A stretch of DNA of 64,000 nucleotides from Marinicella sp. Lineage in GTDB: Bacteria; Pseudomonadota; Gammaproteobacteria; Xanthomonadales; Marinicellaceae. Shown here one piece after another: positions 1,276-12,109 of this stretch (its first letter is position 1; every line of letters begins with the position of its first letter). A program made the translations under genes and the position numbers. Under the pieces are notes generated by a model. The model was not told where the DNA came from. It did not search any database and worked only from the letters and a program-made list of their open reading frames with translations. The stretch spans positions 512,001 through 576,000 of the forward strand of contig OZ246001.1 of NCBI GenBank assembly GCA_965230295.1, read 5' to 3'.

Positions 1276-3435
1276 ATGACTCAAAAAAATAAGCCCATAA
1301 GCCCAACGTCTGACATCCCACTGAAGATCACCAAAACCCCCATGGTTATTCATGGCGACTCAGATTCTAAGCGTGCCGAAATTAAATCTCACTTCATCAA
1401 CACCTATGAAACTTATGAATGTTTGTTTGAATGCTTAAAGGATGATGAAGCTTACTACCAACAACCTGAACCGCTGCGTCATCCTTTGATATTTTATCTG
1501 GCACACACTGCAGTGTTTTTCATCAATAAATTAAGGGTGGCCAAAATCATAGAACACAATGTGGATGAAAGCATTGAATCCATGATGGCCATTGGGGTGG
1601 ATGAGATGTCTTGGGATGATTTGAATGAAGCCAATTATGATTGGCCAACAGTTGCCAAGGTTTATGAATACAGGCATAAAGTCAAAGCTTTGGTGCTTGA
1701 TTTGATTGATCAAATGCCTTTAACTTTACCCATCAATTGGGAGGATCCATTTTGGATCATCTTGATGGGTATTGAGCATGAACGGATCCATTTAGAAACC
1801 TCTTCTGTGTTGATCAGACAATTGGAGCTGAAATATGTGACCTGTTCAACTGATTGGCCACCTCACAACAAAGACCATGATGTGGTCAATAACCAACTGC
1901 TGAAAGTGCCTTCAGGCCCTGTTTCCCAAGGTCGCGAGATGCCTTCCGAAACCTATGGCTGGGACAACGAATACGGTCACTACTCTGAAGATGTGGCTGC
2001 GTTCAAAGCCGCTCAATATTTGGTTTCCAATTCCGAATTTTTGGCTTTCGTAGAAGATGGTGGCTACAAAGACCAACAATGGTGGACTGAAGAAGGCTGG
2101 CGATGGAAATGCTATAAAAAGGCAGAACACCCCACTTTTTGGCGTCAGCAGGATAATCAGTGGCTTTACCGCACCATGACTAGAGAAATAAACATGCCCT
2201 GGAGTTGGCCGGCCGATGTCAACTACTTGGAAGCCAAAGCTTTTTGTAATTGGCTGGCTGCCAGAACAGGCGAGCCCATCAGGCTGCCTACTGAAGCCGA
2301 GTGGCATCGACTGTATGAACACACCATGGGTGATCAACCTCGCTACCCCTTGTGGCAAGACACACCAGGCAACATAGAATTGTCTTATGCGGCTTCTTCT
2401 GTGCCAGTGGATCTATTCCTGTTCGGTGAACAACAGTTTGGTGATGTCATTGGTAATGTGTGGCAATGGACTGAAACCGCCATTGATGGTTTTGACGGTT
2501 TCAAAGTTCATCCGGCTTATGATGATTTTTCTGTGCCCACTTTTGATGGACAACACAATTTAATCAAAGGTGGCAGCTGGATCAGTACCGGCAATGAAGC
2601 ACACTTGGATTCACGGTATGCTTTTCGCCGACATTTTTTTCAACACGCAGGATTTAGATACGTAGAATCGGAGATAACAGTGGATCAAACATTCAATACA
2701 TACGAAACAGACGAACTCATTTCACAATACCTCGAGTTTCACTATGGTGGCGAGTATTTCGGGGTGCCCAATTTTCCCAAAGCTTGTATCGATGCCTTGA
2801 TTCCACATGTTGATTTAAGTCATAACAGCCGGGCATTGGATTTAGGTTGTGCTGTGGGCCGCAGTTCTTTTGAATTGGCCCGGTATTATGAGCATGTCGA
2901 TGCGCTTGATTTCTCAACCCGTTTCATCCGCAATGCGATCAATTTAGTGGATCATGGCGAAGTTAAATACATGATTCCCACTGAAGGTGAACTGACAGAA
3001 TTGAAGTCATTCAGCCTGGCGGATTTGGCTTTGGGCGAACAAGTCAAAAACATTGAATTTTCTCAAGGCGATGCCTGTAATTTAAAAGCTAAATACAGTG
3101 ATTATGATTTGATTTTTGCCGGCAACTTGATCGACCGTTTGTATCAACCCAAGCAATTTTTAACCAGCATCAAAGATCGCATCAAAACTGGCGGGTATTT
3201 GGTACTGACCTCACCCTACACATGGTTGGAAGAATTCACCGAAAAACAAAACTGGTTGGGTGGCATCAAAGTCAATGGCGAAAACGTCACCACCCTGGAT
3301 GCCTTAAAGACCATTTTAGGTCAAGATTTCGAACTGGTGTCCTTGCCTCAAGATGTGCCATTTGTGATCAGGGAAACAGCCAGGAAACACCAACATACAG
3401 TGGCCCAATTAAGCATTTGGAGAAAACGCAGTTAA
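1276..3435 (+). CDS. ovoA: 5-histidylcysteine sulfoxide synthase / methyltransferase OvoA (ovothiol biosynthesis)
   Basis: DinB-like domain LRHPLIFY and iron motif EHERIHLET, FGE-sulfatase domain (GNVWQW, YDDFSVP, RYAFRRHFFQHAGFRY), C-terminal SAM methyltransferase (ALDLGCAVGR). Confidence 0.95.
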   Translation: MTQKNKPISPTSDIPLKITKTPMVIHGDSDSKRAEIKSHFINTYETYECLFECLKDDEAYYQQPEPLRHPLIFYLAHTAVFFINKLRVAKIIEHNVDESIESMMAIGVDEMSWDDLNEANYDWPTVAKVYEYRHKVKALVLDLIDQMPLTLPINWEDPFWIILMGIEHERIHLETSSVLIRQLELKYVTCSTDWPPHNKDHDVVNNQLLKVPSGPVSQGREMPSETYGWDNEYGHYSEDVAAFKAAQYLVSNSEFLAFVEDGGYKDQQWWTEEGWRWKCYKKAEHPTFWRQQDNQWLYRTMTREINMPWSWPADVNYLEAKAFCNWLAARTGEPIRLPTEAEWHRLYEHTMGDQPRYPLWQDTPGNIELSYAASSVPVDLFLFGEQQFGDVIGNVWQWTETAIDGFDGFKVHPAYDDFSVPTFDGQHNLIKGGSWISTGNEAHLDSRYAFRRHFFQHAGFRYVESEITVDQTFNTYETDELISQYLEFHYGGEYFGVPNFPKACIDALIPHVDLSHNSRALDLGCAVGRSSFELARYYEHVDALDFSTRFIRNAINLVDHGEVKYMIPTEGELTELKSFSLADLALGEQVKNIEFSQGDACNLKAKYSDYDLIFAGNLIDRLYQPKQFLTSIKDRIKTGGYLVLTSPYTWLEEFTEKQNWLGGIKVNGENVTTLDALKTILGQDFELVSLPQDVPFVIRETARKHQHTVAQLSIWRKRS

Positions 3436-4536
3436 ATGAATTTCAAGCCATTCAAAATGGCGCAATTCAGTGCCCAGTGGACTCCAGGTAGCCTCCACAA
3501 CTTGCACAGCAGCAATCCCCAGCCCTGGACATGGGATGAACTGAGTGAGGTCGTCGAGACTGATCTAAACAGCCTACTTATCAAAACGCCCTTTGCCTAT
3601 GAACCGGTAGAGGGCAATCAAACCGTACGCGAACTGATCAGTCACCACTACCATTCAGGTTTGTGTGCTGCTGACATCACCCTGACTTCCGGGGCTCAAG
3701 AAGGGATTTTTCTGGTCATGCAGGCCTTGATCAATCCAGATGATCATGTGATCACTTTCAGCCCCTGTTTTGAACCACTGACTCAAGTAGCCATTGATGC
3801 AGGGGCGGAAGTGTCCATGCTGCCTTTGAATGAATCCAACGGCTGGTCAATCAACTGGGACAGGCTAAAAAGTAGCTTCAAGGATTCAACAAAGCTGGTG
3901 GTTATCAACTTCCCTCACAACCCGACAGGTGCTCACATCAGTCAAGCCGAACTGCTGAAACTGACCGCGCTTTGCGAACAGCACAATTGCTGGCTGTTTT
4001 CAGATGAAGTGTTCCGTGGTTTAGAACACCAATCCGCAGATCGCATCAGCAGTGCTGCTGACCTTTATGACAAGGCTGTATCGATGGGAGTGGTTTCTAA
4101 AGCATTGGCCTTGCCCGGTGTCAGACTCGGTTGGTTGTCATGTCAGGATGATGGCTTGCACCAACGGATTAAGACCATCAAGTCACATTTATCCATATGT
4201 CAAAGCAGTTTAGATGCACAATTGTGTCAAGCCATCATTCCTCACAGTGAAAAAATCTGGCAAAGGAGTATCGACATCATCAACGGCAATAAATCTTATC
4301 TGGCGGCTCTATTGGCAAACAATCAGGCATTCAAATGGCATCTACCAAAGGCTTCGGCCACCGCATTCATAGAGTGTCTAGATTCTGAGGCCACAGCATT
4401 ATGCCAAAATTGGGCAGAACAGCACCGCATGTTGTTGTTACCCAATGAAGTGTTCCTAACTGATGTCTCTGGTTTCAGAATGACGCTGGGATCTCAGAAC
4501 AATCGACCCATGTACGATCACATTTTTAAGATTTAG
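3436..4536 (+). CDS. PLP-dependent class I/II aminotransferase-fold enzyme; candidate OvoB-type C-S lyase
   Basis: NFPHNPTG, FSDEVFR, SKALALPGVRLGW (PLP lysine). Starts directly after the ovoA stop. Confidence 0.8.
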   Translation: MNFKPFKMAQFSAQWTPGSLHNLHSSNPQPWTWDELSEVVETDLNSLLIKTPFAYEPVEGNQTVRELISHHYHSGLCAADITLTSGAQEGIFLVMQALINPDDHVITFSPCFEPLTQVAIDAGAEVSMLPLNESNGWSINWDRLKSSFKDSTKLVVINFPHNPTGAHISQAELLKLTALCEQHNCWLFSDEVFRGLEHQSADRISSAADLYDKAVSMGVVSKALALPGVRLGWLSCQDDGLHQRIKTIKSHLSICQSSLDAQLCQAIIPHSEKIWQRSIDIINGNKSYLAALLANNQAFKWHLPKASATAFIECLDSEATALCQNWAEQHRMLLLPNEVFLTDVSGFRMTLGSQNNRPMYDHIFKI

Positions 4537-6328
4537 CAGCTGTCACTTCATGCATGATTTCGTCATAAGCAACCACTTCATTGCGACCTTTATTTTTGGC
4601 CTCAAACAAGGCCAAATCAGCATGGGTTAACAGCATAGAAATGCGGTGACCTGACAACAAGGTGTTGGTCACTCCAAAACTGGCCGTGATGTCAAAAGCG
4701 GCACCTGATTCACTGCAGTCCATCTGCTCAATGGCATGCCTCATTTTTTCCATCAAGCGCATCATTTCAAGGTGTGAAATACCTGGTGAAACGATGCTGA
4801 ACTCTTCACCACCTAGACGAGCAACGAGAATGTCTTGATCCGCCACTTCTTCACAAGTCAAAATCACTTGTTTCAACACCCAGTCACCCACCAGATGCCC
4901 AAATTGATCATTGACATTTTTAAAATGATCCAAATCCATGATCGCCAAATTGACCGGCTGGTTTTTGGCTTTATGGGTTTCTAACATGTCCTTGATCTTT
5001 TCTTCAAAAGCTTTGCGGGTGAACACCTGGGTCAAGTGGTCTATTTCTGCCACTTCTTTGAAATAATCATGCCGTTTTTTGATTTTATAGGTCCACACGC
5101 CCAACAACAGCAACAAACTGGCAATCAACAACATCATCAGCTGTTGTTTCTTGGTGGTTTCGGCTGACAACTTATTTTCCAATTCCAACAACTTGTTGTT
5201 TTGATTCAATTGATCAATTTGAAGTTCCTGCGCCAAATTAGCATGTTTAACCCTGTAATAGGCCACTTGAGTTGCCAACTTGCGTTCATAGATGGATTTT
5301 TCAATGCTGTTTTTTTGGGCCAAATAATGGTAAGCGGGTTGCATAGAATTACCTTCCAGGCTCAGTTGAATCAAAACATTCAACGCCAAAACCAATTGTT
5401 CAGATTCACCGATACTGGCATTCTCCTCGACTGCCAACACACCAAAAGCCTGGGCTTTTTCATTCAGATCAGCCATCCAATAGATGTGAGCCAGCAAGGC
5501 GTGGTAGTAAACCCTGATGTTCTTAAAGTTGGTTTTCTCAACATCATCTGCCAATGATTCCAGAACGGTCACTGCTTTCATGGCTTCTTCTGGATCAGAT
5601 TGTGCTTTATCGGTAAATTGATAGCGGATTTGGTCAAACCTTAAAAATAGCGATGAAATGTAATTATCAACTTGTTCACAGCGGTCAATGGCTGCAGTGA
5701 TTTCATCATTAAATGCTTCGCCTTTACCCTGACGCATTAAAATCCGATACTTATTAAAACCTCCCATGCATTTATCGTCCTCAGAATAATCTCCTGTCAA
5801 CAGCAATTCAGAGTACTTCAGTGCTATATCATCTTGATTCATCAACCGGTAAGAAATCGCCGCCACATTATTGGTCAATGATCTGAGGTATTTATCTTCG
5901 GTGTTTTCCGTTATTTGAATGGCTGTATTTAAATTGTTCAGCGCTTTCTCGAAATCGCCAGTAATGACTTGTAAATTGGCTGTGAACTGAAGCACTCGAG
6001 CCAAGTACTCAGGGGATTCACAAATGGTAACAATTTCATTGAGTTTATTGATTGAACTGGCGTAGTCTCCTATGAAACTTTCACGGTAAATGACTAAAAA
6101 TTCATAATGACACCGTTCATCAGGACTCATCACTGATACATGGTTTGCCAGTTCAGCCAAGCCAGCAGAAAAGCCAGTTTGATCGACTTTCCTTATCTTT
6201 TCTAATTCCAGCAACCGATGTTTAAATCCATTATCTTCAGCGTTCATGGTTTCTTGTGACCATGAAGACATGGCTGGACCAAGAATCAAACTCAGGCTAA
6301 GAAGCAGTTTAAGAAATAATTTATCCAT
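4526..6328 (-). CDS. Membrane-bound diguanylate cyclase with periplasmic TPR-like helical sensor (copy 2)
   Basis: Signal peptide (MDKLFLKLLLSLSLILG..., likely start 6328), helical repeat region, TM segment LMMLLIASLLLLLGVW, then DHLT...MDLDHFKNVNDQFGHLVGD...RLGGEEF. Confidence 0.92.
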   Translation of the reverse strand: MDKLFLKLLLSLSLILGPAMSSWSQETMNAEDNGFKHRLLELEKIRKVDQTGFSAGLAELANHVSVMSPDERCHYEFLVIYRESFIGDYASSINKLNEIVTICESPEYLARVLQFTANLQVITGDFEKALNNLNTAIQITENTEDKYLRSLTNNVAAISYRLMNQDDIALKYSELLLTGDYSEDDKCMGGFNKYRILMRQGKGEAFNDEITAAIDRCEQVDNYISSLFLRFDQIRYQFTDKAQSDPEEAMKAVTVLESLADDVEKTNFKNIRVYYHALLAHIYWMADLNEKAQAFGVLAVEENASIGESEQLVLALNVLIQLSLEGNSMQPAYHYLAQKNSIEKSIYERKLATQVAYYRVKHANLAQELQIDQLNQNNKLLELENKLSAETTKKQQLMMLLIASLLLLLGVWTYKIKKRHDYFKEVAEIDHLTQVFTRKAFEEKIKDMLETHKAKNQPVNLAIMDLDHFKNVNDQFGHLVGDWVLKQVILTCEEVADQDILVARLGGEEFSIVSPGISHLEMMRLMEKMRHAIEQMDCSESGAAFDITASFGVTNTLLSGHRISMLLTHADLALFEAKNKGRNEVVAYDEIMHEVTAAKS

Positions 6329-6385
6329 AAAATAAAAGTGCCAATGAATCACCAATGGCACTCGGTAAAAGTATTATTTCAACAA

Positions 6386-6553
6386 TCAATCTTCGTCGTC
6401 ATCATCTCCTGGGTGATGGGCGCATTTAAGTTCATTGTTTGACGACAACAATTGTTTTATCTGTACTTTTGAAAGTTGATGAGAAATTTGATTGTTTTGG
6501 TGAACCGAATCAGTTTGTCCGATAGATTCCAATATTTTCACGAGTTTATTCAT
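6386..6553 (-). CDS. Small peptide, putative split-borosin precursor A2 (55 aa; not in ORF track)
   Basis: Manual translation MNKLVKILESIGQTDSVHQNNQISHQLSKVQIKQLLSSNNELKCAHHPGDDDDED*. RBS AAAAGAGG 4 nt before ATG. Clear paralog of 9023..9202. Confidence 0.88.
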   Translation of the reverse strand: MNKLVKILESIGQTDSVHQNNQISHQLSKVQIKQLLSSNNELKCAHHPGDDDDED

Positions 6554-6583
6554 AACACCTCTTTTTATAAGTTATTAAGGAAA

Positions 6584-6610
6584 TGTTGTCATCCCCTTTA
6601 AATGACAACA
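6584..6610 (-). promoter_or_regulatory. Inverted repeat/hairpin in 5'UTR of precursor A2
   Basis: TGTTGTCAT-N9-ATGACAACA; minus strand reads TGTTGTCATTTAAAGGGGATGACAACA. Confidence 0.55.
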
Positions 6611-6630
6611 AAGCTATTCTAACATCAATT

Positions 6631-7185
6631 CTAACCAGAATACGACCCCATCCAAGCTGTCTTTTCGATAAACCATTCTTGGGTCTTTTTTTGATGGACG
6701 CCATGTTCAATGATTTTCCCTTTTTGCATTTTTAAGCGCATATTTGCTGTATTTGCAGCCACATTATCAGCCTGACAAAAAGCAATGATGGTTTCTAAGT
6801 TCAACGCTGTAAAACCATGCGCCATCATCAACTGTTTGGCATGGTGGGCCATTCTTTGACGCCGATAGGCTGATGAAATCATCACACCAATGGCTGCGAT
6901 CATTCGGCTTTCAGGCTTAAACCATGTCAAACCAATGATACCCATATTGACATCATCAATATGGCGCTTAATCACATAAGTGAGGTGATGAGGCTGATCA
7001 TCAGACATCTCTTCAATGGTCTTCTTCAGCTGTTTTTCACATTGGCTGCAGGTCAAAGGTTCACCAATAAACTGCATGACTTCTTGGTTACCATAAATTT
7101 GAACAAAAAAGTCTAAATCGCCTTGGTCTACGGGCTTCAGAAAAATGGGATACTTATTGCTGGTGATGTTGGGTCGAACAATCAA
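6631..7185 (-). CDS. GNAT N-acetyltransferase, RimJ/RimL-like (copy 2)
   Basis: VMQFIGEP, IGVMISSAYRRQRMAH, NVAANT. Probable TTG start near 7185, just after the upstream GGDEF stop; the ORF-track start at 7275 overlaps that gene. Confidence 0.8.
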   Translation of the reverse strand: MIVRPNITSNKYPIFLKPVDQGDLDFFVQIYGNQEVMQFIGEPLTCSQCEKQLKKTIEEMSDDQPHHLTYVIKRHIDDVNMGIIGLTWFKPESRMIAAIGVMISSAYRRQRMAHHAKQLMMAHGFTALNLETIIAFCQADNVAANTANMRLKMQKGKIIEHGVHQKKTQEWFIEKTAWMGSYSG

Positions 7186-7192
7186 AGGTTTC

Positions 7193-9007
7193 TCAATCTT
7201 TGTTAACCCTTTGAATGGTCTTGAACTTAATGACTTGATTACGACCTTGTTTCTTGGCTTCAAACAATGCCACATCAGCGTGGGTTAACAACAAAGGCAA
7301 AGAATAACCAGATGTGATGGATGAGGTGTATCCAAAACTGGCTGTGACTGAAAGTTCAGCGCCAGATTCATCACAATCCAGCGTTTCTACAGCAGAACGC
7401 ATCTGCTCCAATTTGGCTTCCATGACATCACATTCTACTTTTGGAAACACGATACAAAATTCTTCGCCACCCAAGCGCGCCAATATCATGTCTTCTTCTA
7501 CAAATTCCTTGATGGCATAGACCACATTTTTCAGCACCCAATCACCAATCAAATGTCCATGGGTGTCATTAACTTTCTTAAAGTGGTCCAAATCCATGAT
7601 GGCCATCTGAATGGGCAGTTTATGATCCTGACAGTAATTCAATTGCACTTTGACCTGTTCTTCAAAAGCTTTCCTGGTCAACACTTTGGTTAAATGATCT
7701 ATTTCTGAAACACCTTTGAAATAATCATGTTTCTTCTTGATTCGCACCAACCACAATGCCATGAAACCCAACAAGGTCAAAATCAACAAAATGACCAGGC
7801 GTTGGTTGTTGGTTTCTTGCTTAGCCAGTTTTTTCTCCAGCTCCAGAACTTCCTTCTGTCGATTCAACTGTTCAATTTCAAACACCTTGGCCAAATTCGA
7901 ATGCTTGACGGTCATGAAAGCCATTTGTTTGGCTTGTGACTGGTCATACATTTTAAGTTCCGCTTCGTTTTTTCGGTTCAAATAATCGTATGACTTAACA
8001 AAGTCACCGCGAGATTTAGAAATGTTTTCTAACACTTCCAGTGCCATGATTAACTGTTCTGTATAACCCAGGTTTTCATTTAAGCTGATGGTTTTTTCTC
8101 CATGTACCATCGCTTCTTCATAATCACCAACCAAGTAGGCAATTTTGGCTTCAATGGCTTTGAAATTTACTTTGATGTTTTTATAGGGTGTGGCATCAAT
8201 TTCTGCCTTCATTGACTCTACCAAATCAGCTATATAGGCCATTTCACCTGCTGCCATTCCACCTGAGGAAAGGGTTCTTTTTATATTGTCTAAAACAATC
8301 GATTGGGCATACAAAGCGTTTCCACTTTCCTTGCAATTCTTTGCAATTTCTAAGATTGTTTCTAAATCTGGGGCATCTTGGTCACCATCCAGATGATACA
8401 TATTTTTACTGTATTGAACCCGGCACAGGTTTTCATCATTGGGCTCAAGGTTGTAATGAAGTTCACTGTATTTAACACTGAGTTCTTTTTGATCTAATAA
8501 GTTATAAACCACAGACGCTCCAGAATATGCGATTAATTTAGATTTTTTATCAACCGTTTGTTCTGCGTTTTGAATGGCGTTATCGACATGGTACGAGGCT
8601 TTTTTATAGTCTCCACTGATGGCACTGATGTTGGAAATCAAGGCGTCAATTCGAATCCTTGCCCGTAAATCATCACATAGAGGAATGATTTTTTCGAGGT
8701 CTGATACTGCCTGTAAAGATTCACCGGCAAATGCCGTTTGGTAGGCCCGAAGGAACTGGTAATGGCAAACTTGGTAAGCCGACATTTGCGATAATTTGTT
8801 TTCCAGCAAATCCAAGCCAGCAATGAATTCGTTGTGGTTACTCAATCTGATGTTTTCTAAGCGCAGAATTTCTTCAGTTAAATGAGGTGGTTCTCCTGTA
8901 GAGTCTGGGTCAGCTTGTGCCAAAGTAATTTGAGGGCACAACAAAACAAAGGACATGAATAGTAACCATGTCCTTATTGTTTTATTTGAGTTTATATTTA
9001 ACAACAA
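7193..9007 (-). CDS. Membrane-bound diguanylate cyclase with periplasmic TPR-like helical sensor (copy 1)
   Basis: Signal peptide ending LAQA, helical region, TM LVILLILTLLGFMALWLV, then MDLDHFKKVNDTHGHLIGD...RLGGEEF. Paralog of 4526..6328. Confidence 0.92.
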   Translation of the reverse strand: MLLNINSNKTIRTWLLFMSFVLLCPQITLAQADPDSTGEPPHLTEEILRLENIRLSNHNEFIAGLDLLENKLSQMSAYQVCHYQFLRAYQTAFAGESLQAVSDLEKIIPLCDDLRARIRIDALISNISAISGDYKKASYHVDNAIQNAEQTVDKKSKLIAYSGASVVYNLLDQKELSVKYSELHYNLEPNDENLCRVQYSKNMYHLDGDQDAPDLETILEIAKNCKESGNALYAQSIVLDNIKRTLSSGGMAAGEMAYIADLVESMKAEIDATPYKNIKVNFKAIEAKIAYLVGDYEEAMVHGEKTISLNENLGYTEQLIMALEVLENISKSRGDFVKSYDYLNRKNEAELKMYDQSQAKQMAFMTVKHSNLAKVFEIEQLNRQKEVLELEKKLAKQETNNQRLVILLILTLLGFMALWLVRIKKKHDYFKGVSEIDHLTKVLTRKAFEEQVKVQLNYCQDHKLPIQMAIMDLDHFKKVNDTHGHLIGDWVLKNVVYAIKEFVEEDMILARLGGEEFCIVFPKVECDVMEAKLEQMRSAVETLDCDESGAELSVTASFGYTSSITSGYSLPLLLTHADVALFEAKKQGRNQVIKFKTIQRVNKD

Positions 9008-9022
9008 TAGACTGCTATCAGA

Positions 9023-9202
9023 TCACTCTTCGTCATCGTCATCTGGTAACAACAAGCAAATCAGATCATTGTTTTGCAATTTAATCTTGTTGAACGCTCG
9101 TTCCTGAATATTCATGCCTTGAATCATTTGTTTTACAGAATCATTTTGATGAATGGATTGGGTTTGTCCAATTTGTTCCAGCAGTTTTACATTGAATTTC
9201 AT
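9023..9202 (-). CDS. Small peptide, putative split-borosin precursor A1 (59 aa)
   Basis: MKFNVKLLEQIGQTQSIHQNDSVKQMIQGMNIQERAFNKIKLQNNDLICLLLPDDDDEE; ATG at 9202 with AAAAGAGG RBS. Lies between the borosin methyltransferase and a GGDEF gene, the sonM-sonA-GGDEF order of Shewanella. Confidence 0.88.
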   Translation of the reverse strand: MKFNVKLLEQIGQTQSIHQNDSVKQMIQGMNIQERAFNKIKLQNNDLICLLLPDDDDEE

Positions 9203-9238
9203 TGATAGTCCTCTTTTTAAGTTTTTTAAAGATTGCTC

Positions 9239-9256
9239 TTGTCCCCTATAGGACAA
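9239..9256 (-). promoter_or_regulatory. Inverted repeat/hairpin in 5'UTR of precursor A1
   Basis: TTGTCC-CCTATA-GGACAA; minus strand reads TTGTCCTATAGGGGACAA, similar to the hairpin before precursor A2. Confidence 0.5.
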
Positions 9257-9266
9257 AAAAATCATA

Positions 9267-10046
9267 TCATGAATGCTTAATTCGCAACAACCTATTTATT
9301 TTATCAATGTCTTTTTGCTTTTCTTGTCCTGGTGGGATCACTAAAGTGCTTTTTAATGTAACCTCTGCACAAGCTAAGTCCTTGAGCGCCAATGATTTTA
9401 TCAATGGCTTTTCTATGGGCAAGACAGCACATTCATAAATGATCACTTGGTGGTCATCAGGGTAAGTCTCCAACAACATATCAACCAACAGTTGTTTGGC
9501 TTCTTCACTGGTCTCAAATACTTTCAAAGATCTGTCACCAGCCAAAGCTATCTGCCACAAAACCAAATAAGCTGTGGGATCAAAAACGGTTTGATTGAAC
9601 ATGAAATTATTGGCTTCAAAATGCGCAATACCATAGGTTCCAGGATCTATTCCCAAATCTGCATACAAACAATCTTCGGCTGAAACACCCGGTTCCATGT
9701 GGGCTTTGAAACCTTCTTTTCTGGCCATTTCAATGGTTTGGTGTGGAGTCAAAGCAAACACCCCTGGGTGGCCATAAAAAGCACCACAAACTTTTTTCCC
9801 GGCCCTCACTTCCTTCATGATGGTCTCGTTCATTTCCTGGTATGTTTGTTTGCGCGATTTTCCTTCAGCATACAATGACTGTAAACTGATGACATTCTCA
9901 TTCATGGTACCCACCCATTCTTCCACCAATAGGTTAGATGCCGCTACAAAAACCACATCAGCCTGTTCAATAAAATTCCTCGATAAAGGGGTGATGTGAG
10001 CGCCCAAAGTCATGCCTAAGCCCACGTTGACTAAACTGCCTTTCAT
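9267..10046 (-). CDS. Borosin-type peptide alpha-N-methyltransferase (SonM/OphMA family, TP_methylase fold), stand-alone (split)
   Basis: KGSLVNVGLG, LQSLYAEGKSRKQTYQEM (Y...R...Y catalytic set), GAFYGHPGVF, MEPGVSAEDCLYADLGIDPG, LVLWQI, STLVIPP. Start ATG at 10046 overlaps the upstream TGA (ATGA). Confidence 0.92.
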   Translation of the reverse strand: MKGSLVNVGLGMTLGAHITPLSRNFIEQADVVFVAASNLLVEEWVGTMNENVISLQSLYAEGKSRKQTYQEMNETIMKEVRAGKKVCGAFYGHPGVFALTPHQTIEMARKEGFKAHMEPGVSAEDCLYADLGIDPGTYGIAHFEANNFMFNQTVFDPTAYLVLWQIALAGDRSLKVFETSEEAKQLLVDMLLETYPDDHQVIIYECAVLPIEKPLIKSLALKDLACAEVTLKSTLVIPPGQEKQKDIDKINRLLRIKHS

Positions 10047-10540
10047 TGATTCAATTTCTCCATTGTAAAATCCCACCTGACAAGGTTGAGATGTTTCTTT
10101 GCTGTTGATGTATTTTTGACTGGGACAAAGCCCATGTTTTGATAACTGATACTCGCTGCTTTGTTATCTGCATGGATATAAACGGTGCAGAGCTTCGCGG
10201 GAAACAGGCGCCGCACTTGACGCATTGCGTTCATTTGAGCCCACTTGCATACCCCTTTGTTTTGATAGGCAGGCACCACGATCATGCCTGATTCAATGCT
10301 TTCATTATGGGGGTACCAGTGCATACTTAACATGCCTGCCCGGTGCAGACCGTCAGTCGTCTCGATGATTTGATAATCCGCTGTTTGTCGTTCGATCTCT
10401 TGCAACATTTTATGGCACAATTGTGCGGCTATGTCAGGCGACACAAGGTCACCAATGTGTCGCATGATGAGCGGATCTTGATATAAATCACTGACGAATG
10501 ACTGGTCTGATTCGGCCAATCGGCGCAATTGGTATGTCAT
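10043..10540 (-). CDS. GNAT N-acetyltransferase, RimJ/RimL-like (copy 1)
   Basis: LRRLAESD, LYQDPLIMRHIG, GMIVVPAYQNKGV, NKAASISYQNMGF. Translationally coupled to the borosin methyltransferase. Confidence 0.85.
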   Translation of the reverse strand: MTYQLRRLAESDQSFVSDLYQDPLIMRHIGDLVSPDIAAQLCHKMLQEIERQTADYQIIETTDGLHRAGMLSMHWYPHNESIESGMIVVPAYQNKGVCKWAQMNAMRQVRRLFPAKLCTVYIHADNKAASISYQNMGFVPVKNTSTAKKHLNLVRWDFTMEKLNQ

Positions 10541-10616
10541 GAAAATTACATTTCCTTTTGAGGTCTCAGCTAAAACAGGCTTATGTTACTATAAACCCAA
10601 AAATCTCACACAACTT

Positions 10617-11432
10617 ATGGCTCAAATATACTTAATACTTTTCACTGTGTTGCTGGCGATCATCGTCATAATGGGGTTGATAAAATGGCGCAAGCAAAGC
10701 AAAAGACGCGCCATATACCGGCTTGAAACGCCTGAAACTTGGGTGGCGTACATCATCAATAACGTGGCACTTTACTCAGTGCTGCCATCGCACCTACAAC
10801 GAGAGCTGTTGGGCCATGTGAATATTTTTCTGTCTGAAAAATATTTTTCCGGCCATGCCGGCCTGGAGGTGACTGATGAGATGCGTGTCACCATCGCTGC
10901 CCAGGCCTGTCTGCTGCTGTTGAACCGAAAAACCAATTACTACCCCCACTTAAAAACCATCCTGATTTATCCGGCTGGATTTAAAAATCCCAATCACGAG
11001 AAACCAGGCCACCATCTGGGTGAATCTTGGGTCCGGGGGCCAGTGGTGCTGTCTTGGGCAGATGCCAAACACGGTGGCAGCAACGCCAAAGATGGCAGTA
11101 ATGTGGTGATCCACGAATTTGCTCATCAATTAGATCAAGTGGATGGTGCCGGAGATGGCAGGCCAGTCATCGAGGGCAACCAACTCAGAACTTGGGGCAA
11201 AGTCATGAGCAAAGAGTTTAAAAACCTCATTGTCAAAGCCAAAATGCGCAGAAAAACATTTTTTGACCATTACGGTGCCACCAATCCAGCAGAATTTTTT
11301 GCGGTGACTTCTGAGCATTTTTTTGAGCAGCCGCATACCTTCAAACGCAAACACGCTGAACTGTATGATTTATTGATGAAATATTACCGTTTGGACCCAG
11401 CCAGTTGGACCTCCCCTATTAAACAACGTTAA
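10617..11432 (+). CDS. Zinc-dependent peptidase, M90/MtfA family, N-terminal membrane anchor
   Basis: IAAQACL, GESWVRGPVVLSW, NVVIHEFAHQLD, YGATNPAEFFAV.SEHFFE; likely start ATG 10617. Confidence 0.9.
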   Translation: MAQIYLILFTVLLAIIVIMGLIKWRKQSKRRAIYRLETPETWVAYIINNVALYSVLPSHLQRELLGHVNIFLSEKYFSGHAGLEVTDEMRVTIAAQACLLLLNRKTNYYPHLKTILIYPAGFKNPNHEKPGHHLGESWVRGPVVLSWADAKHGGSNAKDGSNVVIHEFAHQLDQVDGAGDGRPVIEGNQLRTWGKVMSKEFKNLIVKAKMRRKTFFDHYGATNPAEFFAVTSEHFFEQPHTFKRKHAELYDLLMKYYRLDPASWTSPIKQR

Positions 11433-11575
11433 TTGAGTGGGTTTTGTCACAAAATGTTCACACCCAATCAGCACAATACCCGAAAAATTAAGGTTTATGA
11501 CTGAACCTATGTAACTTTTTTCAGTCTGAAGCGTTTAACCATACAAATAAAGAAACAACTAAGGCGGGAATTGCC

Positions 11576-12109
11576 ATGCAACAGCACAACATATTTTTCA
11601 ATTTTATCAAGGTGAGTTTATTCACCACCATATTATTTGGTGGCTTATTGGCCCAAAGCTATGCCACCACACTGTTCTCAAACACCATCATGAAGATGAA
11701 CATTGAGTTCAGTACCACCGATGCCAAAAACAGCATCACCCAAAAAGCATCCATGACCGTCCACAATGATCAAGAGTCAAGCATCGCATTTGGCGACCAT
11801 CAGTTGGACATCAAAACCAAATTCATCAGCTGGGAAGAAAATGCCGCTGAACACGAACAGGTTTTTGCAGAAATTTTGGTCCAGAAACTGAATGAAGCGG
11901 GTGAATACCAAGTGATCTATGAACCTTCTTTGTTGATCTTACGCAATGAGTGGGCTGAACTCAAAATCAATTCTGAAGATGGCGAAGAAAGCTTTGAGCT
12001 CAAAATGCAGTATGAAGACTTCAAGTCTGAAAAAGACGACAATGCCTTCTTACAAGAACCTGAGTGGTTGAATTGGACAGAAAAAACAGCTGACGCAGAG
12101 GTTTGCTGA
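11576..12109 (+). CDS. Hypothetical exported protein
   Basis: 177-aa ORF with signal-peptide-like N-terminus (LFGGLLAQSYA); no recognised motif. Confidence 0.7.
   Translation: MQQHNIFFNFIKVSLFTTILFGGLLAQSYATTLFSNTIMKMNIEFSTTDAKNSITQKASMTVHNDQESSIAFGDHQLDIKTKFISWEENAAEHEQVFAEILVQKLNEAGEYQVIYEPSLLILRNEWAELKINSEDGEESFELKMQYEDFKSEKDDNAFLQEPEWLNWTEKTADAEVC

Follow-up and report, generated by a model that had tools for sequence, protein, structure and literature searches.

The small open reading frame at 6386..6553 on the minus strand of the window, by which we mean the whole 64,000-nucleotide (64-kb) stretch of Marinicella DNA that was analysed, is best explained as a genuine second precursor gene that serves a Marinicella RiPP pathway of the type IV 'split' borosin kind, and we consider this explanation very probable. 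The frame, which we call A2, starts with ATG and encodes 55 aa (the coordinates include the stop); position, length and sequence all agree exactly with what the initial annotation had reported. Its identification draws on the reading frame itself, its paralogy to the first precursor (A1), its conservation, the selection pattern and a co-folding prediction. The peptide consists of a predicted three-helix docking leader with the motif LExxGQxxS (residues 1-38), the segment C44-AHH-P48, in which a variable tripeptide (x3) lies between an invariant Cys and an invariant Pro, and the acidic tail PGDDDDED.

In the window, the genes on the minus strand follow the order GNAT1 - methyltransferase - A1 - GGDEF-1 - GNAT2 - A2 - GGDEF-2. 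The acetyltransferase GNAT1 (10043..10540, PF13302) precedes a SonM-like borosin alpha-N-methyltransferase of the TP-methylase type (9267..10046), the start of which was set at the ATG at 10046 from an alignment with homologues and SonM. Directly after the methyltransferase comes precursor A1 (9023..9202, 59 aa, with C-LLL-P-DDDDEE), and then GGDEF-1 (7193..9007), a paralogue of GGDEF-2 that likewise joins a TPR sensor to a cyclase. A2 itself is found on the same strand as the SonM homologue, 2.7 kb downstream of it, with the acetyltransferase GNAT2 (6631..7275, PF13302, RimJ/RimL-like) upstream and GGDEF-2 (4526..6361) beginning 25 nt past its stop. The unit GNAT - precursor - TPR/GGDEF is thus present twice in the locus and the methyltransferase once, the latter being a single copy in the whole genome. 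Given the homology of the methylase to SonM and the twice-present unit, the locus is a type IV split borosin cluster with a duplicated module sharing one methyltransferase. In its longest form, the GNAT2 frame shares 83 nt (7193-7275) with the 3' end of GGDEF-1, and its true start is probably internal, since the Pfam domain begins at residue 45.

Two plus-strand neighbours of the cluster were also noted. At 1276-4536 of the window, a homologue of the 5-histidylcysteine sulfoxide synthase OvoA, which scores over the cut-offs of both TIGR04344 (662.7 bits) and TIGR04345 (333.4 bits), precedes a class I/II PLP enzyme; the two likely form an ovothiol pair. The pair flanks the borosin locus genus-wide and is not found there in more distant genera; that it lies near a Cys/His-bearing peptide is probably a coincidence. 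At 10539-11432, divergent from the cluster, lies a gene for a metallopeptidase of the MtfA-like M90 type that has a hydrophobic anchor at its N-terminus. It is syntenic across most Marinicella loci but missing from clusters in other genera, and it could be a maturation protease or a mere neighbour.

Several observations indicate that A2 is a conserved and selected small gene and a paralogue of A1. A BLASTP comparison of the two peptides gave 22/55 identities (40%) with an E-value of 3e-12 for the pair, and the blocks that had been described as common to both, VK(I/L)LExIGQTxS(V/I)HQN, NN(E/D)LxC-x3-P and an acidic tail, are all seen in this alignment, as is the exchange of AHH for LLL. A strong Shine-Dalgarno sequence, AGAGGTG, can be read at 6556..6562 (minus strand), 2 nt upstream of the start, and a GAGG-like site precedes the start in 30/30 family peptides from 20 fetched loci and the window. 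Searching related genomes with the A2 protein returned matching open frames without stops, so that the conservation of the frame, which the initial annotation had proposed to check in this way, was found in relatives. A profile built from 28 peptides matched 32 of the 44 genomes of the taxonomic family (E<=1e-4), and the peptide-positive genomes often contain two to three copies about 3 kb apart. In a class-wide sample the profile matched only the genome of the window among the 400 scored, a result that says little as at most three genomes per family were sampled. Compared with its M. litoralis-type ortholog (81% aa identity), A2 has a pN of 0.12 at saturated synonymous sites (Sd 32.5 on 30.5 synonymous sites), a pattern which, at the sequence level, indicates purifying selection in related species.

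Comparison across species also points to candidate expression signals in the spacer between GNAT2 and A2. An extended -10-like element, TGTTAGAAT, is located at 6616..6624 on the minus strand (TG at 6623-6624, TAGAAT at 6616-6621); the element TGTTAGAATA lies 50-60 nt ahead of the A2 ATG and is conserved in four of the six aligned A2 upstream regions, and a two-hexamer promoter scan did not flag it. An 11-bp stem-loop at 6584..6610 (minus strand), detected in a cross-species hairpin comparison, is probably a 5' hairpin of the A2 mRNA. Hairpins occur also in the orthologous spacers and before A1, with different sequences and modest z-scores of -1.1 to -2.9. As the counts of the promoter and terminator scan were not above those of shuffled sequences (12 vs a mean of 15.8, and 4 vs a mean of 5.5), the hairpin and -10 calls rest on the cross-species comparison. 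Taken at these modest statistics, the data suggest a candidate promoter and a 5' stem-loop belonging to A2-GGDEF-2 itself. The hairpin before A1 (9203-9269, minus strand; 10 bp, z -2.2) follows the stop of the methyltransferase, ahead of the ribosome-binding site of A1, and parallels the one before A2.

Both precursors belong to a peptide family characterised by an N-terminal LExxGQxxS docking motif, an invariant Cys-x3-Pro and an acidic tail. Searched against 1.84 billion proteins, the family profile found 89 representatives at E<=1e-3, 67 of them at E<=1e-10. Residues M1, L8, G12, C44 and P48 are invariant in a 28-sequence alignment, in which E9, S16, Q19, D50 and D51 are at least 90% conserved, and C44 and P48 stay invariant across 60 aligned sequences. 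The strict C-x3-P-acidic pattern is present in 119 of 171 distinct tails; these 119 carry 78 distinct tripeptides between them, and tail length across the family ranges from 5 to about 40 low-complexity residues. The profile extends to proteins of 85-91 aa with an N-terminal I-x-x-L-E-x-x-G-Q, a longer helical middle and tails of the form C-x3-P-A-E-D-D-E; in P0090, a hypothetical protein of Pleionea sp., the tail opens with PAEDEPEKE. In some members the core segment is doubled or repeated, as with two CCxxxP units or a 9-10-residue unit present five times (loci L081, L113, L118, L123 and L129 from Rhodanobacter and relatives, and proteins P0070 and P0073), and some loci contain two tandem precursor genes ahead of one GGDEF gene.

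The neighbouring enzyme had been taken to be of the borosin type, and this is confirmed: the TP-methylase is a clear homologue of SonM from Shewanella oneidensis (E 6.8e-72) and also matches fungal OphMA/dbOphM (E 1e-45 to 1e-47). The motifs YGHPGVF and DCLYAD (Y91-G-H-P and D125-C-L-Y-A-D) are invariant among 15 homologues and agree with the borosin motif models YGHP and DCLFAD named in the accessible text of Cho et al. (bioRxiv 10.1101/2021.12.24.474128). R65, F97, E144 and W164, invariant in the same 15 homologues, are the equivalents of SonM R67, F99, E146 and W166, which the available part of PMC8429565 describes as core-peptide/lock residues. The tie of the family to borosin methyltransferase and GGDEF neighbourhoods, on which the initial annotation had made its proposal depend, was recovered: 31 of the 32 peptide-positive genomes have a methyltransferase, the exception being a 530-contig assembly, and a GGDEF gene is next to 73 of the 84 peptides found in methyltransferase-seeded loci. 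Peptide matches outnumber methyltransferase matches in 12 of these 32 genomes, and the type of peptide that adjoins the enzyme varies between species, with orphan and enzyme-adjacent positions swapped.

Structure prediction of A2 together with the methyltransferase, a check that had likewise been suggested, passed its controls. With both partners supplied as alignments, three runs gave a median score of 0.74, whereas the best of 3 controls scored 0.00; of solved complexes 58 of 80 reach the mark applied, and of mismatched pairs 2 of 110. The runs had at least 82% of their contacts in common, with a partner pLDDT of at least 73. In the predicted complex, A2 residues 2-18 contact enzyme residues 13-16, 40-47 and 209-211, residues 2-18 and 38-50 contact 65-66, 97-101, 144-147 and 164-165, and the stretch 38-50, including C44-P48, is placed at the equivalents of SonM R67, F99, E146 and W166. 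The model supports binding of A2 to the methyltransferase, with the reservation that, SonM-SonA complexes having already been solved, the pass may reflect likeness to those complexes.

The comparison with SonA allows the leader to be viewed in context. In the model of A2 alone (pLDDT 70.6), helices span residues 3-11, 21-26 and 29-38 and the tail is disordered. The borosin-binding domain (BBD) of SonA is described in the available text of PMC10549244 as five helices in 53 residues, so the three predicted helices of A2 in about 38 residues bear out the earlier impression of a short leader, which may serve as a minimal binding domain. Searches of PDB sequences by phmmer with A2, A1 and profiles of 28 and 60 members gave no SonA match, Foldseek with the A2 model gave 0 matches, and VIA-align of this small model against 48,161 chains reached a best Z of 2.7, with unrelated helical rows only. 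A2 may belong to the BBD fold class, for which the co-fold and the literature classification of SamA1 are the grounds. The SonA/SonM/SO1480 cluster of Shewanella oneidensis (Shewanellamide A), as far as it is covered by the accessible parts of PMC8429565 and PMC10549244, resembles the Marinicella locus in its homologous methyltransferase, in the order methyltransferase - precursor - GGDEF protein, and in the docking of SonA by an N-terminal helical domain, as predicted for A2. On the other hand, no likeness of A1 and A2 to SonA was detected in sequence or in fold, SonA as described there lacks a Cys-x3-Pro and an acidic tail and yields as its product a C-terminal 16-mer with two N-methyls, and the Marinicella locus differs by a missing cation-efflux gene and by the presence of GNAT genes.

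A closer parallel is provided by SamA1 of Shewanella amazonensis. According to the available text of Lee et al. (bioRxiv 10.1101/2024.01.09.574750), SamM1 N-methylates SamA1 at Phe52, the pepsin-like protease SamP cleaves methylated SamA1 only, at Phe53|Pro54, what was found of SamA1 in cells is its acidic C-terminal tail in unmethylated form, and the cluster contains a PF13302 acetyltransferase. The opening of the P0090 tail, PAEDEPEKE, is identical to the first nine residues of the SamA1 fragment given there, which links the A2 family, by sequence and by analogy, to SamA1-type type IV split borosin precursors. Mapped onto the family, the methylated residue of SamA1 would correspond to the second of x3 (C+2) and the cut to x3|Pro. 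Both systems have a separate N-methyltransferase and a short precursor, hydrophobic or variable residues right before a Pro that leads into an acidic tail, a cluster that includes a PF13302 acetyltransferase and a genome that encodes a pepsin-like A1 peptidase, and our profile reaches relatives whose tail starts as the SamA1 fragment does. They differ in that Marinicella has leaders shorter by about 30 residues and tails of only 7-8 residues, that two precursors, each with a TPR-GGDEF gene of its own, are served by one enzyme, that the Marinicella peptidases are encoded away from the cluster, and that the Marinicella system is known from sequence.

The pepsin-like genes of this genome are two PF00026 ORFs of 414 and 417 aa, over the Pfam cut-off, with DSG/DTG motifs and no signal peptide. 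Among the genomes of the taxonomic family PF00026 was found in 17 of 44, compared with 0 of 14 control genomes, and in five genomes it lies directly beyond the GGDEF gene of a borosin locus; 15 of the 32 peptide-positive genomes gave no PF00026 match. The two ORFs (1474-2718 on the minus strand of locus L052 and 1429-2682 on the plus strand of locus L053) map to contig C1 of the genome, near 2,087,755-2,088,999 and 206,901-208,154; they are paralogous and cytoplasmic, and PF00026 is rare in bacteria.

Turning to the sensors, in both GGDEF proteins an N-terminal signal peptide/TM1 is followed by helical repeats over about 365 aa, a single TM helix and a GGEEF domain; in GGDEF-2 these are a periplasmic TPR superhelix of about 365 aa, a TM helix at approximately residues 405-428 and a cytoplasmic GGEEF diguanylate cyclase domain. 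The sensors of GGDEF-1 and GGDEF-2 are 31% identical and the GGDEF domains 55%. The GGDEF-2 sensor is modelled as a TPR superhelix (pLDDT 89.8), and Foldseek matched it to peptide-binding TPR domains with LGN on top, RapJ-CSF (4gyo), phage phi3T Rap with its pheromone (8rsv) and NprR (5dbk) having TMq values of 0.63, 0.61 and 0.62, respectively. With LGN TPR domains ranking above Rap and NprR, these matches are generic TPR similarity.

To look at the neighbourhoods, 80 loci from Marinicella, Rhodanobacter, Dyella, Pseudoxanthomonas, Arenimonas, Alteromonas and others were seeded by the methyltransferase alignment alone, the peptide alignment having no stretch conserved enough for seeding. The family profile found 84 peptides in 65 of these loci and none in the other 15. 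The gene after the peptide is a GGDEF gene in 73/84 cases, another peptide in 7/84 and the end of the locus in 4/84, and the gene before it is the methyltransferase in just 56/84. As GGDEF is next for 73 peptides while the enzyme is upstream of 56, the precursor-GGDEF pair is the invariant unit. A maximum likelihood tree of 31 sensor domains contains a GGDEF-2 clade (7 rows, support 100/99), with C-x-H-x-P in all six rows that have a peptide, and a GGDEF-1 clade (9 rows, 100/99) with hydrophobic x3, sub-clades of which unite, across species, the sensors next to CVLFP (three species) and those next to CMILP (two species). At the sequence level, x3 is conserved inside each receptor lineage and differs from one lineage to the next, which fits cognate pairs, and with them the receptor specificity that the initial annotation had suggested, and linked, co-inherited genes alike. 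In loci L041 (GGDEF gene at 9935-11767) and L051 (10604-12373), a sensor of the same family has no precursor gene detected in front of it; these two may be regarded as orphan receptors.

Combining these data, we propose the following sequence of events for A2. Its N-terminal ~38 residues, with LExxGQxxS and three helices, would act as a shortened borosin-binding domain through which the peptide attaches to the methyltransferase, and residues 38-50 would thread into the active site, where at least one backbone amide within C44-A-H-H-P48 would be N-methylated. By analogy with SamA1 the methylated residue would be His46, two before the Pro, and a distally encoded pepsin-like A1 peptidase would then cut at H47|P48. 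The PF13302 GNAT may acetylate a product. The processed peptide could, finally, modulate its cognate diguanylate cyclase, which appears the most likely role because a TPR-GGDEF gene follows the precursor and the type of x3 tracks the sensor clade.

A2 is short and, like A1, matches no Pfam or NCBIfam model, as might a chance open frame; conservation and the selection pattern, together with the Shine-Dalgarno site and synteny, rule this out, and we give it practically no credence. The initial annotation had raised the idea that Cys-Ala-His-His binds metal, and a metal-binding peptide with no tie to signalling would be a further reading of A2. Cys with two His makes a plausible metal site, and His at C+2 is kept in all six A2-clade peptides, yet Cys and Pro are invariant family-wide while x3 is purely hydrophobic in most members. 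The Cys is found in members with and without His, His at C+2 occurs in just 10 of the 119 motif-bearing tails and the module is without metal-handling genes, all of which speaks against the idea and makes this reading highly improbable. More weight, within the range of the unlikely, goes to A2 being an unmodified partner of GGDEF-2, for example a co-translated regulator or chaperone, that acts independently of the methyltransferase and keeps its leader as a relic of the duplication. Such a peptide would agree with the lack of a methyltransferase in the A2 module itself, with an adjacency to GGDEF that is tighter than that to the enzyme, and with the one peptide-positive genome that gave no methyltransferase match, though this is the 530-contig assembly. 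It would sit poorly with the docking residues L8, E9, G12 and S16 being kept in A2, with the co-fold, with the enzyme being retained in 31 of 32 peptide-positive genomes, and with the swapping of orphan and enzyme-adjacent positions between peptide types in other species.

A different matter is which part of the precursor carries the information. The initial annotation had seen a conserved recognition region and a variable core, and the conserved docking region and the divergent x3 are borne out; the label 'core' became uncertain in the light of SamA1. With methylation two residues before the Pro, a cut at X|Pro and the acidic tail as the fragment detected, the precedent in the available text of bioRxiv 10.1101/2024.01.09.574750 raises the prospect that the variable tripeptide may be a processing or specificity site and not part of a released product. 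In its strict form this would make x3 a processing site only, with methylation before the Pro licensing a pepsin-like cut and the unmethylated polyanionic tail (PGDDDDED in A2, PDDDDEE in A1) as the product, the swapped core conferring no product specificity. SamP cutting methylated SamA1 at F53|P54 with an acidic fragment in cells, the pepsin-like genes in this genome and the almost identical tails of A1 and A2 all point that way. However, one shared enzyme predicts similar x3 in paralogues, when x3 differs and is kept per sensor lineage; 78 distinct tripeptides occur among the 119 motif-bearing tails, and low-complexity tails of 5 to ~40 residues are unlike a specific ligand. We regard the processing-site reading as possible, if on the doubtful side. 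The more specific proposal that each precursor supplies the cognate signal for the TPR-GGDEF receptor directly downstream, with the Cys-x3-Pro tripeptide as specificity code, is offered tentatively and we think it rather unlikely as it stands. The main obstacle to a signalling role is that the sensor is periplasmic while A2, read from its sequence, has no signal peptide and no exporter or transporter is encoded nearby.

The arrangement brings to mind the RRNPP quorum sensing systems (Rap/NprR/PlcR with Phr-type peptides), in which, as here, a small peptide gene adjoins a TPR receptor gene, paralogous peptide/receptor pairs occur in one genome and the TPR fold is shared, at the level of the generic matches to RapJ, phi3T Rap and NprR. 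Unlike the cytoplasmic RRNPP regulators, the Marinicella sensor lies in the periplasm and forms one protein with a diguanylate cyclase, and the Marinicella peptide has no secretion signal and is predicted to be enzyme-modified. Membership in RRNPP, which involves a secreted pro-peptide, re-import and a cytoplasmic TPR regulator, was rejected as there is no signal sequence and the TPR is periplasmic; the resemblance is one of logic only.

Borosin clusters with GGDEF, GNAT and several precursors have been published, so that a second precursor is not new in kind. The accessible text of Cho et al. (bioRxiv 10.1101/2021.12.24.474128) reports GGDEF in 56% and PF13302 in 26% of split borosin clusters and describes periplasmic TPR domains, leaving the presence of GGDEF without explanation, and that of Lee et al. 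(bioRxiv 10.1101/2024.01.09.574750) gives 3064 predicted precursors in 2596 clusters, one of which has 11. As far as their available text goes, the split borosin papers that mention GGDEF list the domain only; their supplementary datasets may already include the Marinicella precursors. In the literature text searched, we found no statement of the precursor-GGDEF pair as a conserved unit or of a precursor type tracking a sensor clade, and a full-text search returned no paper joining borosin with c-di-GMP, or with diguanylate cyclase from 2022 on. What we add is the precursor-GGDEF pair as an invariant unit and an x3 type that tracks the sensor clade, two patterns that, taken together, open a role in peptide-to-receptor signalling to testing.

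According to the available text of the borosin papers, it is not known what bacterial borosins do for their hosts, and the Marinicella locus offers a natural experiment on this question, since the precursor and the TPR-GGDEF gene were duplicated as a unit and the methyltransferase was not. Duplication of a precursor with its own membrane sensor that makes c-di-GMP hints that the peptides may act as signals, and two peptides combined with two sensors provide a cheap test of borosin control over c-di-GMP synthesis. The very short predicted docking leader, of about 38 aa, may in addition be of use for engineering. If the signalling role were true, each genome would hold one to three orthogonal signalling channels that lead from a RiPP peptide to c-di-GMP and have a single N-methyltransferase in common, in Marinicella as well as in many relatives among the Xanthomonadales and Alteromonadales, and bacterial borosins would gain a function as autocrine or quorum-type signals.
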